From positions 1 to 43,780 of the IMG/VR virus record IMGVR_UViG_3300044788_000040: a DNA stretch of 43,780 nucleotides; one strand, given 5' to 3'. Shown here piece after piece: positions 27,968-43,780 of the stretch. Below the pieces are notes generated by a model, which searched no databases, was not told where the DNA came from, and was given only the letters and a program-made list of their open reading frames with translations. Position numbers and translations under genes: made by a program. Every line of letters begins with the position of its first letter. Positions within the stretch are counted from its first letter, which is position 1. This stretch comes from a virus (taxonomy: Duplodnaviria > Caudoviricetes).

Positions 27968-28042
27968 GTTGTGCGTTGCACCCTCGCCTCGCCTTGCACA
28001 GCCATGCCTGGCCGCGCCGCGCCTAACCTCGCCAAGCGAGCC
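27968..28042 (-). repeat. GGC-NN pentamer array B4 with 3' hairpin (putative guide RNA)
   Basis: GGCTC GCTT GGCGA GGTTA GGCGC GGCGC GGCCA GGCAT GGCTG TGCAA GGCGA GGCGA GGGTGCAACGCACAAC. Confidence 0.9.
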
Positions 28043-28264
28043 TCATAGTCCGGCGGGCATCCGAATCATCCGCTTGAGCTTCCCATCGCGGCGCACGCGG
28101 TAGCACGCGAGCACCTTGCTCCCCCGGCGAATCACCGCGTAGTCGAGCCCGTGGAGCGTCTGGGTCTTCGCGGACGTCGGCAGATCCTCGCCGCCGCTCG
28201 CGTAGTACGCGGCCAGCGCCCGCTTCGATGCTTCGTCGAGTCCCATCTCCAATTCGTTGTACAT
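28043..28264 (-). CDS. 73-aa accessory protein of RAMP locus
   Basis: RBS GAGGA then ATG after array B3; MYNELEMG...LACYRVRRDGKLKRMIRMP. Confidence 0.75.
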   Translation of the reverse strand: MYNELEMGLDEASKRALAAYYASGGEDLPTSAKTQTLHGLDYAVIRRGSKVLACYRVRRDGKLKRMIRMPAGL

Positions 28265-28279
28265 GAAGTCCTCGATCGT

Positions 28280-28352
28280 GTGCGTTGCACCCATGCCTCG
28301 CCCTGCCCTGCCCTGCCTCGCCCTGCCCTGCCCCGCCTGGCCCTGCCCAGCC
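28280..28352 (-). repeat. GGC-NN pentamer array B3 (12 perfect units) with 3' hairpin
   Basis: NN = TG AG CA GG AG AG GA AG AG AG GA AT, then GGGTGCAACGCAC. Confidence 0.92.
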
Positions 28353-29015
28353 TCACATCTTCGTCAGCTCGACGCGGAACCGCCCGTGCGGTCCAGGCGT
28401 TCGGCCGCTCGGTCGCCAGTCGCCGAGCCCCTTGTACTCGCCCGCAAACGAGAGGATCGAGAGCAGCGCATCCTGCGTGATCTGATCATCCCAGACGTCG
28501 ATGCGACCGCTGAGCTTCCACTCGTGGAACTTCGGGCGCACGCGGATGTGCTTCGACGCCCCGATCTTCGCTCGCTTCACGAACAGCGAGAATCCGCTCT
28601 TCTCCGCGATCGCCTTGTGCTTCTCGAAGTCGAGCTCGCTCTGCAGCTTGTAGATCGGCTTGGCGTCGATCGTCTTGCCGCGCACCTCGATGGCCCACGC
28701 TGGATCGGCGGTCATCATGCCGCTCTGCGTCTGCGCCTTGAACGTCTTGCCGTTCTTCCCGCCCGGGACGGGCACGCTAGCGCCGCCCTCCATGAAGCAG
28801 CGCATGAGGTTGTCGCTCGGCATCACCACGAGCCCGTCATGCTCGTAGAGGCAACCGAGCCACGTGAAGGCCGGCGTCCGATCGTCGCCCGCCTTGCTGA
28901 GCTTCTTGTTGCCAGGGTCCTCGCGCCATCGAGCGAGCTGGTCCGCGAACTCGATGTTGTCGCGGTGAAGCAGGAGGGGGGTGATCCCCGTGAGCGTTGC
29001 GTTGTAGCTGTTCAT
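28353..29015 (-). CDS. Stand-alone Cas7/RAMP-like protein (220 aa)
   Basis: YNATLTGITPLLLH, VMPSDNLMRCF, RVRPKFHEW, C-terminal Gly-rich loop GLGDWRPSGRTPGPHGRF; RBS AAGGGAG; start trimmed to ATG 29015. Confidence 0.8.
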   Translation of the reverse strand: MNSYNATLTGITPLLLHRDNIEFADQLARWREDPGNKKLSKAGDDRTPAFTWLGCLYEHDGLVVMPSDNLMRCFMEGGASVPVPGGKNGKTFKAQTQSGMMTADPAWAIEVRGKTIDAKPIYKLQSELDFEKHKAIAEKSGFSLFVKRAKIGASKHIRVRPKFHEWKLSGRIDVWDDQITQDALLSILSFAGEYKGLGDWRPSGRTPGPHGRFRVELTKM

Positions 29016-29030
29016 TCGATTCTCCCTTGA

Positions 29031-29120
29031 GTTGTGCGTTGCACCCATGCCTCGCCCTGCCACGCCGTGCCTCGCCCGGCCCGGCCGCGCCGTGCCTTGC
29101 CTCGCCATCCAGGCCTCGGC
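29031..29120 (-). repeat. GGC-NN pentamer array B2 (12 perfect units) with 3' hairpin
   Basis: NN = GA AA AC GC CG CG GA AC GT AG GA AT, then GGGTGCAACGCACAAC. Confidence 0.92.
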
Positions 29121-29124
29121 AGAT

Positions 29125-29613
29125 TCACTTGACCAGCCGCGCTCTCGGCAGCTGGTCCTGCGGTTTGAACTCGATCGCGATCTCCTTGCTCGCCTTGCGC
29201 AAGTGATCGGAAGTCGACTCCATGTGACGGAGCACGTGCTCCGCGACGCGCTGCTGCGCCTCGGGAAGCTTGCCGATCTCGACGCTACGGACGTCGTCGG
29301 CCGCCTTGCGGATCTGCTTCGCGCCGCGGCCGTATCGCTTGATGTCGTCGGCGATGCGATCCATGCCGTCGATGACGCGGAATCCGACGCCTGGAACCGT
29401 CGAGAGACGGAGGTTGTTGACCTTGAGGAGGTGTTTCCGCCACGACGCGGTCACGCTGCGGTAGCGCGCCGATCCGACTTCGACCGCGATCGCCTTGGCG
29501 ACGTCGGCATGAGCGATCTCGTCGTCCGCTTTGATGCCCGGAAATGCGGCGAGAAGCCTCCGAACATCTGGTTCAGTCGGGATTCCGCCGAGAAAAAGAC
29601 CGTGTTTACCCAT
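29125..29613 (-). CDS. Winged-helix-like accessory protein of RAMP locus (162 aa)
   Basis: Helical segment then LSTVPGVGFRV, resembling an OmpR-type wing; RBS GGAG; start trimmed to ATG 29613. Confidence 0.7.
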   Translation of the reverse strand: MGKHGLFLGGIPTEPDVRRLLAAFPGIKADDEIAHADVAKAIAVEVGSARYRSVTASWRKHLLKVNNLRLSTVPGVGFRVIDGMDRIADDIKRYGRGAKQIRKAADDVRSVEIGKLPEAQQRVAEHVLRHMESTSDHLRKASKEIAIEFKPQDQLPRARLVK

Positions 29614-29627
29614 CGTTTCGCTCCATT

Positions 29628-29722
29628 TTGTGATGAACACCCTCGCCTCGCCATGCCGAGCCACGCCCAGCCCTGCCGAGCCACGCCCAGCCCTGCCTTG
29701 CCTGGCCGCGCCGAGCCATGCC
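29628..29722 (-). repeat. GGC-NN pentamer array B1 (16 perfect units) with variant 3' hairpin
   Basis: NN = AT TC GC CA AA AG TG GT TC AG TG GT TC AT GA GA, then GGGTGTTCATCACAA. Confidence 0.92.
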
Positions 29723-40527: not shown

Positions 40528-40724
40528 TGGACGAGACCAACATCTTTCTCAACCTGCTGATCGCTGCGATGCAGGACGCCGTCCTCACCGGCCACATCTC
40601 GCAGCTTCAAACGACGATCACGCCAGAGGGCACGAGCAAGGCGAAGTTGCTGCGCATCATCGTGGTCCCCGAAGAGATGGAGATCGTTCGCCCGCTCGGT
40701 GGCGAGTTCAAGAGGCCGCTGTGA
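40527..40724 (+). CDS. 65-aa hypothetical protein (paralog of 41600-41743)
   Basis: LIAAMQDAVLTGHISQLQTT. Confidence 0.65.
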   Translation: MDETNIFLNLLIAAMQDAVLTGHISQLQTTITPEGTSKAKLLRIIVVPEEMEIVRPLGGEFKRPL

Positions 40725-41415: not shown

Positions 41416-41600
41416 TCTGGATGCTCATCTTCTCGTTCTCGCTCTCGGGCCTCATCGCGATCGTCTGGGTGTTCGCGATCGATCGCGCCGAGGACCGTCG
41501 CATGTCGATGATCGAAGGTCCGCATCGGATGCCGCGCGCGGTTCGGCGCCGGATGAAGAAGTCGCGCGCGGATCTGCGACGAGCACTGAGGAATCGCTGA
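41412..41600 (+). CDS. Small membrane protein
   Basis: MIWMLIFSFSLSGLIAIVWVFAI plus basic tail. Confidence 0.6.
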   Translation: MIWMLIFSFSLSGLIAIVWVFAIDRAEDRRMSMIEGPHRMPRAVRRRMKKSRADLRRALRNR

Positions 41601-41743
41601 TGTCGACCGAAGCGGACATCTTCATCGGGATCCTGATCGCAGCGATGGAGGACGCGGTGACGACCGGCCACATCTCGCAGCTGCAAACCACGATGATCGA
41701 CAACGCAGCAGAGCAATTCCTACGACGAGCGAGGTCACGGTGA
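41600..41743 (+). CDS. 47-aa hypothetical protein (paralog of 40527-40724)
   Basis: LIAAMEDAVTTGHISQLQTT. Confidence 0.5.
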   Translation: MSTEADIFIGILIAAMEDAVTTGHISQLQTTMIDNAAEQFLRRARSR

Positions 41744-41812
41744 TCTCGACTCCACAAGTTTCCCAAGCACAGCACCCATCACACCGACGGGATTGCTTGG
41801 GCGGAGCACGAC

Positions 41813-42514
41813 ATGACCAAGACGAAGGAAGCGACGAAGACAGAGGCAGAACCGAAGCCGCAGATCATCACGATCAAGCCACCGAACATCCAGACGATCG
41901 AGTTGACGATCGAGGGAACTGCGCCGTACGTGCAGCACAAGTTCAGCGCGAAAGCGAAGGCGCAGATCAAGGCGACTCAGGAAGCCGGATCGGTCGACAA
42001 GTCGAAGAAGGTACGCAGCTCGAAAGACTTCGAGGAGGTCTATCGGCAGGCGTTGCACGTAGGGATCGACGGGCGCTACGGAATTCCGGCGCCTGCGTTC
42101 CGCAACGCTGCGATCAGCGCGTGTCGGCTGATCGGTTTCAAGATGACGATGGCGAAGATGGCGATTTTTGTACTCGCCGACACGCTCGATGCAGACGAGC
42201 GCTCACCTCTGGTTCACATCAATCCGGCGAGCAAGGCGACGCTCGCGAAACAGGGAATCTCCGACGAGCAGCCCCATCTGTTCATGAGCCACGCCCGCAA
42301 CGACAACGGCAGCGTCGATCTGCGTGCTCGACCGATGTGGGATCCAGGTTGGACCGCGCAGCTCCGCATCCAGTTCGATGCGGACGTGTTCAGCCCGACG
42401 GACGTGGCGAACCTGATCGCACGCGTTGGTGCTCAAGTCGGGGTCGGCGAGGGTCGACCGGACTCGAAGGACAGCGCGGGCGTCGGTTGGGGGACGTTCA
42501 AGATCGTTGGCTAG
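41813..42514 (+). CDS. Second stand-alone Cas7/RAMP-like protein (233 aa)
   Basis: IELTIEGTAPYVQH, YGIPAPAFRNAAISAC, LRARPMWDPGW, Gly-rich loop GVGEGRPDSKDSAGVGWGTF. Confidence 0.82.
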   Translation: MTKTKEATKTEAEPKPQIITIKPPNIQTIELTIEGTAPYVQHKFSAKAKAQIKATQEAGSVDKSKKVRSSKDFEEVYRQALHVGIDGRYGIPAPAFRNAAISACRLIGFKMTMAKMAIFVLADTLDADERSPLVHINPASKATLAKQGISDEQPHLFMSHARNDNGSVDLRARPMWDPGWTAQLRIQFDADVFSPTDVANLIARVGAQVGVGEGRPDSKDSAGVGWGTFKIVG

Positions 42515-43122
42515 GCGGGACGAGACGAGGGGCTTGGCAGGCGAGGCACGGCGCGGCCTGGCGCGGCGATGCATGGCGCGGCGAGATCTTGGGGAGGCAA
42601 CGCAGGCGGGGACACGCGAGGCTCGACGAGACCGGGATGGGCCCGGAGCGATACGACACGGCAGCGCAGGCGGGGCGAGGCCACGTTGGGCCCGGAGTGG
42701 CACGGCAGGGCCTGGCTGGATTCGCAGCACATCGCTGCGCAAGGCTGCGCTGGGCAGGCAAGGCTGGGCTGGGTGCGTCGCGGCGAGGCTGGGCACGGCA
42801 ACGCAGGAGTCGCCAGGCGGGGCTTGGCTCGGCATGGAATTGCGTGGCACGGCAGGCATGGCAAGGCGCGGCGTGGCGCGGCGCGGCATGGCGAGGCAGG
42901 CGAGGCAGGCAAGGCGCGGCGAGGCGAGGCGAGGCCCGGCCAGACTTGGCATCGCAGGCGACGCAGGACGTGGCTGGGCCCGGCCCGGACTCGCAAGGCA
43001 GGGCATCAACGGCAGGCACGGCGTGGCGCGGAGAGGCATGGCCAGGCATGGCGAGGCAGGCATGGCATGGCATGGCAGGGCCAGTACGGGCGTGGAATGG
43101 CACGGACACGCAGGCGTGGATT
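42515..43122 (+). repeat. ~600-nt GGC-NN pentamer array punctuated by 4-nt (G/C)GCA spacers (putative multi-guide precursor RNA)
   Basis: e.g. GGCA|GGCAT GGCAA GGCGC GGCGT GGCGC GGCGC GGCAT GGCGA|GGCA; fills the gap between RAMP stop and next RBS. Confidence 0.92.
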
Positions 43123-43141
43123 CAACAACAGGAGATCTCGA

Positions 43142-43618
43142 ATGACTGACTACGCATTCTCACGGCCCATGCGAAAGGGCATCGACGCGAACGACGTCGG
43201 CCGTTCGATTCAATCGCTCGTCGACAAGCACGGCGAAGCTCGACCCGAGCATATCGTCAAGGCGGCGCGTAGCGAGAAGCATCCGCTACACGCCCACTTC
43301 GAGTGGGACGACAGCGAGGCAGCGAAACAGCACCGACTCGAACAAGCACGCTACGTCCTGCGCGCGGTGACGATCGTTCGCGAGGATCGACCGGACGTCA
43401 CCATCCGCGCGTTCGTCAACGTCGAGCGCGAAGGTGCGTGGAATCCGATCGATGTCGTGCTCGCGAGCCCGACTGGACGAGAGCAGCTGCTCGCCCAAGC
43501 GCTCTCGGATCTCCAAGCGCTGTCCCGCAAATACCACGTCCTCGAAGAACTCGAAGACGTGAGGTCGGCGATCGCTCGACTCGCCGACGAGAAGCGTGAA
43601 CAGAAGGAAGCGGCGTAG
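43142..43618 (+). CDS. Accessory protein of second RAMP locus (158 aa)
   Basis: RBS ACAGGAG; HPLHAHFEWDDSEAAKQHRLEQAR motif; start trimmed to ATG 43142. Confidence 0.8.
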   Translation: MTDYAFSRPMRKGIDANDVGRSIQSLVDKHGEARPEHIVKAARSEKHPLHAHFEWDDSEAAKQHRLEQARYVLRAVTIVREDRPDVTIRAFVNVEREGAWNPIDVVLASPTGREQLLAQALSDLQALSRKYHVLEELEDVRSAIARLADEKREQKEAA

Positions 43619-43622
43619 GGCG

Positions 43623-43780
43623 ATGATCGATTCGCCCTGCACCTACGTCACCGATGACAACCGCACCATCCGCGGCTTCATCCGCTCGGTCGGCTGGACC
43701 AACGCCGGTGCGAGCGTCATCGTCGAGATCGAGGGCGGCAAGCTCGTCGAAGTGGTCGCGCGCCTGGTGACGGTCACGCC
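43623..43780 (+). CDS. Partial hypothetical protein running off the window end
   Basis: ATG 43623, open for 52 codons to the edge. Confidence 0.5.
   Translation, partial: MIDSPCTYVTDDNRTIRGFIRSVGWTNAGASVIVEIEGGKLVEVVARLVTVT

Follow-up and report, generated by a model that had tools for sequence, protein, structure and literature searches.

Is the long run of GGC-NN pentamers at the right end of this phage genome a single repeat, or is it divided into separate guides by breaks in its own register? A sequence-only reading had proposed a multi-guide precursor, split into about 11 guide-sized blocks by SGCA tetramers (S = G or C) and functionally like a CRISPR array. The window, i.e., the whole stretch of DNA analyzed, is 43,780 bp long and represents the entire contig of a temperate phage, carrying genes for a serine integrase, terminase, portal, head, tail sheath, and helicases; the PHROG scan covered 21 of its proteins.

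The array is placed between the vipr open reading frame (41813-42514) and an accessory open reading frame (43142-43618), with an RBS-like AGGAG between its two-unit stub and the accessory gene. No sigma-70 promoter or terminator was found in 41500-43780, and the locus gave no Rfam match, neither to a ribozyme nor to a CRISPR repeat. Only 5-nt periodic repeats were present at the locus; the long direct repeats with contiguous spacers that characterize CRISPR-Cas were absent. Upstream, two small ORFs (40528-40724 and 41600-41743) share near-identical cores (ILIAAM..AV.TGHISQLQTT), an apparent duplication in which the second copy looks truncated.

VIPR is a CRISPR-related DNA-silencing system described in 2026 (bioRxiv 10.64898/2026.04.26.720920). 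The structure model of the array-adjacent protein, built from 85 sequences (pLDDT 87.5), matched Csm3 chains in Foldseek with E 5e-7, along with Cmr RAMPs, and aligned with Csm3/Cmr RAMP structures at Z 10.9 and rmsd 3.5 over 153 aligned positions. The protein is therefore predicted to be a stand-alone single-RRM RAMP, the kind of protein (Vipr) by which a VIPR locus is recognized. Vipr had no Pfam family and no sequence match in the PDB, and the structure library (entries to 8 April 2026) contained no Vipr chain. Residues D169, R173, D189, and E213 are invariant in Vipr.

Comparison with the SUSP1 clade was made through a Felixounavirus protein and published residue numbers, not through the SUSP1 sequence itself. 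A profile of the 85 Vipr homologs matched this protein with probability 80.8 and E 1.3e-5; of the 14 residues to which 10.64898/2026.04.26.720927 assigns SUSP1 Vipr numbers, the Felixounavirus protein carries 13. The window Vipr is only distantly related to it (22% over 174 columns), and in the profile alignment SUSP1 W178 is replaced by Gly and D177 by Glu, a point against the guide reading. The array Vipr falls into the same PHROG (phrog_4652) as the second Vipr of the window, the latter matching the SUSP1 clade by tblastn.

A homolog of the accessory gene was present in 174 of 228 vipr loci, and in 93 of 117 when only loci with full flanks were considered; in 103 loci it directly followed vipr without an intervening array. 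The model of the accessory protein reached pLDDT 95.8 and yielded no clear fold match: the winged-helix/HTH rows were weak (E of at least 1), as were the helical-hairpin rows, and no nuclease fold was recognized. An accessory vap gene and a location in a phage, two further marks of VIPR, were both found at the locus.

For the phase analysis, the array was split into GGC-NN pentamers with our own parser and scores, the null was scored identically, and each listed site was then checked. Among the 14 SGCA phase resets originally listed, 12 turned out to be true -1 shifts, at 42536, 42601, 42665, 42753, 42802, 42851, 42895, 42904, 42953, 43011, 43055, and 43109, whereas at 42723 and at 42962 the CGCA opens a regular pentamer in phase. 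Close to 42723, the actual shift sits upstream, at a non-SGCA tetramer (-1) at ~42714-42722, and a second non-SGCA -1 shift, CAAC at 43007, lies ahead of 43011. Insertions were detected at ~42529 (+2) and ~42590 (+1). Position 42962 carries a junction-like motif, and a junction may have existed there until a later insertion restored the phase. Both 42895-42910 and 42953-42968 read junction-GGCGA-junction, a 9-nt doubling that may have arisen when a junction was duplicated as guides were gained or lost. The parts of the locus are as follows:

41813-42514, plus strand: vipr, 233 aa, predicted single RAMP/Cas7-like fold, phrog_4652
42509-42535, plus strand: degenerate lead-in of ~5 pentamers, overlapping the vipr stop codon
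42536-42542, plus strand: first junction, GGCA-GGC, from the site check
42540-42600, plus strand: block 1, 12 units with an extra base near 42590; junction CGCA at 42601
42605-42664, plus strand: block 2, 12 units; junction CGCA at 42665
42669-42752, plus strand: block 3, 10 + 6 units and, near 42714-42722, a -1 shift that is not SGCA; junction GGCA at 42753
42757-42801, plus strand: block 4, 9 units; junction CGCA at 42802
42806-42850, plus strand: block 5, 9 units; junction GGCA at 42851
42855-42894, plus strand: block 6, 8 units; junction GGCA at 42895
42899-42907, plus strand: one-unit mini-block with junction GGCA at 42904
42908-42952, plus strand: block 7, 9 units; junction CGCA at 42953
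42957-43010, plus strand: block 8, 10 units and a CAAC tetramer; junction GGCA at 43011
43015-43054, plus strand: block 9, 8 units; junction GGCA at 43055
43059-43108, plus strand: block 10, 10 units; last junction CGCA at 43109
43113-43122, plus strand: two-unit stub beyond the last junction, followed by AGGAG
43142-43618, plus strand: accessory (vap-like) gene, 158 aa, phrog_15946

Spacings between the 12 true sites were 65, 64, 88, 49, 49, 44, 9, 49, 58, 44, and 54 nt, and 8 of the 11 followed the 5n+4 rule that had been noted before. The proposed number of blocks was slightly adjusted, to 10 full blocks, each of 8-16 units, together with a mini-block of one unit, or to 11 if the block with the 88-nt spacing (block 3), possibly two guides with a decayed junction, is counted twice. 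The differing NN strings attributed to the blocks were confirmed: all strings differ, the best pair sharing 4 dinucleotides in register, and the four strings quoted earlier correspond to the blocks at 42757, 42806, 42855, and 43015. With blocks of 8-12 units, one of 16, and one of 1, the array has the GGY/NN pentamer organization of VIPR (about 9-16 per guide).

The phase breaks are real and far beyond chance. Twelve of the 14 -1 shifts in the window occur at NGCA (p ~2e-11 against the 9% rate of random deletions), and 9 of the 11 segments contain 7-13 units (p 0.0007 against random placement).

Homologous arrays were collected from 227 loci, to which the viral and metagenome scans contributed the best 80 of 533 and the best 80 of 552, respectively, and from one annotated cyanophage. 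An array was present in 193 of these 228 loci, and removal of near-duplicates left 232 arrays from 177 loci, which are related to each other and not independent. Of 1259 phase shifts in the 232 arrays, 1138 were -1, and 820 of these 1138 used NGCA (GGCA 562, CGCA 196, AGCA 32, TGCA 30), compared with 9.0% in 2994 simulated single deletions; the remaining 318 used other tetramers. Homologous arrays without regular punctuation would have spoken against the proposal, and the opposite was observed, with at least one NGCA junction in 165 of 177 loci and at least three in 124 of 177.

Block length was similarly regular. The 496 blocks with NGCA on both sides, a count from a parse that one-unit blocks escape, had a median of 9 units, and 90% of them contained 7-13 units, compared with 28% under a geometric distribution. 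Of 849 junction-to-junction segments, 672 were 5n+4 in length and 31 were mini-blocks of 9 or 14 nt (1-2 units); the lengths were spread evenly over the three frames (263, 284, and 302). A GGC unit followed directly after the junction in 97% of cases, compared with 63% mid-block, and the last NN ahead of the junction was biased towards A (entropy 3.1 versus 3.9 bits). Because the junction tetramers and the following GGC in homologs go beyond the SGCA set, the working mark is NGCA-GGC, broader than SGCA. Among 167 untruncated arrays, a junction opens 71 and closes 86.

The same junction was found in mycobacteriophage-type loci (L230-L235), whose Vipr is only ~31% identical to that of the window. 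In the array of L238, located upstream of vipr, a TTCA-type -1 junction replaces NGCA. The junction sequence may co-vary with the Vipr clade. The L001 array combines a constant TTCTT unit before its junctions with internal GGAG/GGAT/GGAC -1 shifts, i.e., a two-level punctuation. In the mycobacteriophage loci L230 and L239-L246, annotation of the staggered arrays upstream of vipr is often mistaken, presenting them as small hypothetical proteins or as N-terminal extensions. In mycobacteriophage Gorge (L245, 539-1756), where the region exceeds that of its relatives by one base, a single fused CDS is annotated for vipr and the accessory gene.

Comparison of related phages, suggested earlier as a check, revealed that whole blocks are gained, lost, and swapped. 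Whole-block changes were observed in the pairs L233/L234, L230/L231, L069/L075, L052/L199, and L168/L169. A single 59-nt block distinguishes L233 from L234, and the difference between L231 and L230 consists of blocks 59 and 54 nt long; between L069 and L075, the lead stub and the last two blocks are kept and three are swapped, and between L052 and L199 blocks are reordered and exchanged. Pairs with 100% identical Vipr included some with the same array and others with mixed arrays, and at 98% identity or less almost no block was shared. Turnover between relatives falls mid-array, and homology on either side makes the exact breakpoints of block indels hard to place. Relatives also differ within blocks, by gain or loss of whole pentamers and by chimeric or recombined blocks, and the blocks are therefore not strictly indivisible.

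The arrangement has a published counterpart. The legend of fig. S18 in 10.64898/2026.04.26.720920 names a 'staggered vrRNA array, 1 nt overlapping' and mentions processed vrRNAs. Since SGCA followed by GGC can be read as an SGCAG pentamer whose final G is also the first base of the following unit, the window array is very likely of the same design. At each of the 12 window junctions, successive blocks share 1 nt, and neither a spacer nor a tail or ribozyme comes between them. Like the window, staggered VIPR arrays combine vipr, vap, and a GGY/NN array of back-to-back guides, the 1-base overlap being arithmetically equal to the -1 shift.

The text of 10.64898/2026.04.26.720920 gives no type number for the staggered design and contains no junction motif ('GCA' has 0 occurrences), block statistics, or turnover, which a figure or data S4 may show; its sRNA-seq is said there to confirm the ribozyme and single-guide designs, and staggered arrays are not listed among them. 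In the texts of 10.64898/2026.04.26.720927, 10.64898/2026.10.15.759431, and 10.64898/2026.10.21.760802, the word 'staggered' has 0 occurrences. No junction motif is named and no processing experiment is described in the VIPR texts, although figures, data files, and supplements may hold them, and the literature search returned no VIPR paper beyond those cited here.

Type II VIPR, described in SUSP1 and a P. fulva prophage (10.64898/2026.04.26.720927, 10.64898/2026.10.15.759431), has a related Vipr, the same pentamer scaffold, and a similar number of repeats per guide. According to these texts, its guides end in a structured 3' tail, whereas the window blocks have no tail and abut via a 4-nt tetramer. 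Silencing has been reported there for type II VIPR, whereas for the window phage we infer it.

A second, different VIPR system was noted in the window at 27984-29722 on the minus strand, between the genes for the terminase small and large subunits:

about 29125-29613, minus strand: accessory-like gene
28353-29015, minus strand: vipr, phrog_4652, about 26% identical to the Felixounavirus Vipr

Its four guides are dispersed and consist of 10-16 units, three of them share the same short tail, and an NGCA junction was found in 0 of 4. Two VIPR designs thus occur in a single phage.

The likeness to a CRISPR array holds for the modular layout bracketed by repeats but not for the code, which is the gapped code of VIPR. 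Class 1 CRISPR arrays, with their Cas6/Cas7 RAMPs, likewise consist of modular guides bracketed by a short repeated mark and are served by a RAMP-fold binder. Class 1 CRISPR relies on a long direct repeat and a contiguous code, whereas the window array has a 7-nt junction, a gapped code, a single RAMP, and mid-array turnover.

Target searches gave nothing above chance for any block of the window phage, and the same was true for self-targeting by the 11 window blocks. Exact gapped seeds from three window blocks yielded 0, 17, and 9 matches in viral contigs, one of the 17 being an 18/18 match, at chance expectation, in a record of 36% GC. Two mycobacteriophage blocks gave 30 and 14 matches (best 20/22) in unrelated phages, none above chance. 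One L116 block searched in 5 genomes gave one 19/22 match, in an apparent chromosomal gene, and two L121 blocks in 301 genomes gave 3 matches each, compared with 2 and 0 for the controls, none of them in an evident phage gene. No skip-1 excess was observed when 150 blocks were compared with 1 Mb of locus DNA, nor an overall excess of skip-1 matches when 975 blocks were compared with vipr genes.

When only first blocks adjoining vipr were considered, 5 of 51 beat all 20 shuffles at a 1-nt skip, compared with 2 of the 210 blocks sampled from elsewhere (Fisher p 0.004); the controls with skip 0 and skip 2 gave 2 and 1 of 51, respectively. The first blocks of L023, L061, and L103 decode to vipr genes at 17/18, 18/22, and 18/20 (p 0.002-0.004, 500 shuffles), whereas those of L028 and L140, although better than 20 shuffles, did not hold at 500 (p 0.07). 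The three matches lie in conserved stretches of the vipr family and are weaker by 1-4 bases on the phage's own gene than on those of relatives. In the block after the first, only 4-9 of 20-24 positions match, i.e., the match to vipr stops at the junction. This is what independent guides predict, as a post hoc observation on a small set, three picked from 51 candidates.

Conserved punctuation in homologs, block turnover, and the published VIPR architecture all favor the multi-guide precursor proposed at the outset. Layout, junction motif, block size, and block turnover are matters of observation, and we consider it probable that each of the about 10 junction-bounded blocks works as a separate VIPR guide RNA, cut at the junctions. 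According to this scheme, vipr, the array, and vap would be transcribed as one precursor, the -1 shift would break the register of the Vipr filament, and cutting at the junctions would release tail-less guides of 45-65 nt. If the features of type II VIPR carry over, one Vipr would bind each pentamer, with ~9 Vipr subunits loaded per guide; the NN pairs would be read on DNA with one base skipped, and the filament would be steered to a gapped DNA target, silencing genes of rival phages or elements.

The weakest step concerns what reads the junction. Because any one-base deletion would break the register, yet NGCAGGC is fixed, the motif may point to sequence-specific recognition, with Vipr itself as the foremost candidate, a tentative proposal that could well prove wrong. 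A bolder version seems unlikely, namely that NGCAGGC is a minimal repeat recognized and cut by Vipr, a one-protein forerunner of Cas6-type maturation, and that new guides are written whole into the array at the same junction by some acquisition route.

The precursor might also stay uncut, with each -1 junction stopping one Vipr filament and starting the next, so that a single RNA would bear several targeting filaments like beads on a string. In the Vipr structure, with one protomer per pentamer, a register break alone would separate the filaments; moreover, the junctions show neither a hairpin nor a ribozyme (unpaired probability 0.25-0.53, mean 0.39; no structure and no Rfam match), and the accessory protein has no recognized nuclease fold. 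However, such an arrangement needs neither the fixed A nor the nearly constant GGC that follows, and the S18 legend speaks of processed vrRNAs. We regard it as rather improbable.

A junction serving mainly at the DNA level, as a scar or recombination handle left when guides are inserted and exchanged, while the RNA ends are fixed at other positions, appears more improbable still. It would agree with block-wise turnover between junctions, with junctions at both ends of many arrays, and with the mini-blocks of 1-2 units; a scar would decay, however, whereas GGC is enriched after the junction, and block length fits the 9-16 repeats of known guides. Such a role is compatible with separate guide RNAs and does not exclude them. 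A single long repeat with random deletions by slippage, or a low-complexity extension of the accessory protein, could draw on the open frame 42569-43618, which spans most of the array and the accessory gene, and on the four window irregularities other than SGCA (two -1 shifts, two insertions), but this explanation is scarcely credible and largely refuted by the strong -1 bias, the motif, the regular lengths evenly spread over the frames, the 59-nt indel between near-identical phages, and the accessory genes that follow vipr without an array.

The window locus is thus best regarded as a further example of the published staggered VIPR architecture, to which the junction motif and the turnover of blocks add modestly. 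What is gained is a precise junction rule (NGCA followed by GGC, about 9 units, 5n+4 spacing) together with modular turnover of blocks. If the 7-nt mark directs processing, compact multi-guide expression would be possible. Cultivable mycobacteriophages with the same junctions (L230, L242, L243, and L246) make both guide maturation and the origin of guides directly testable.
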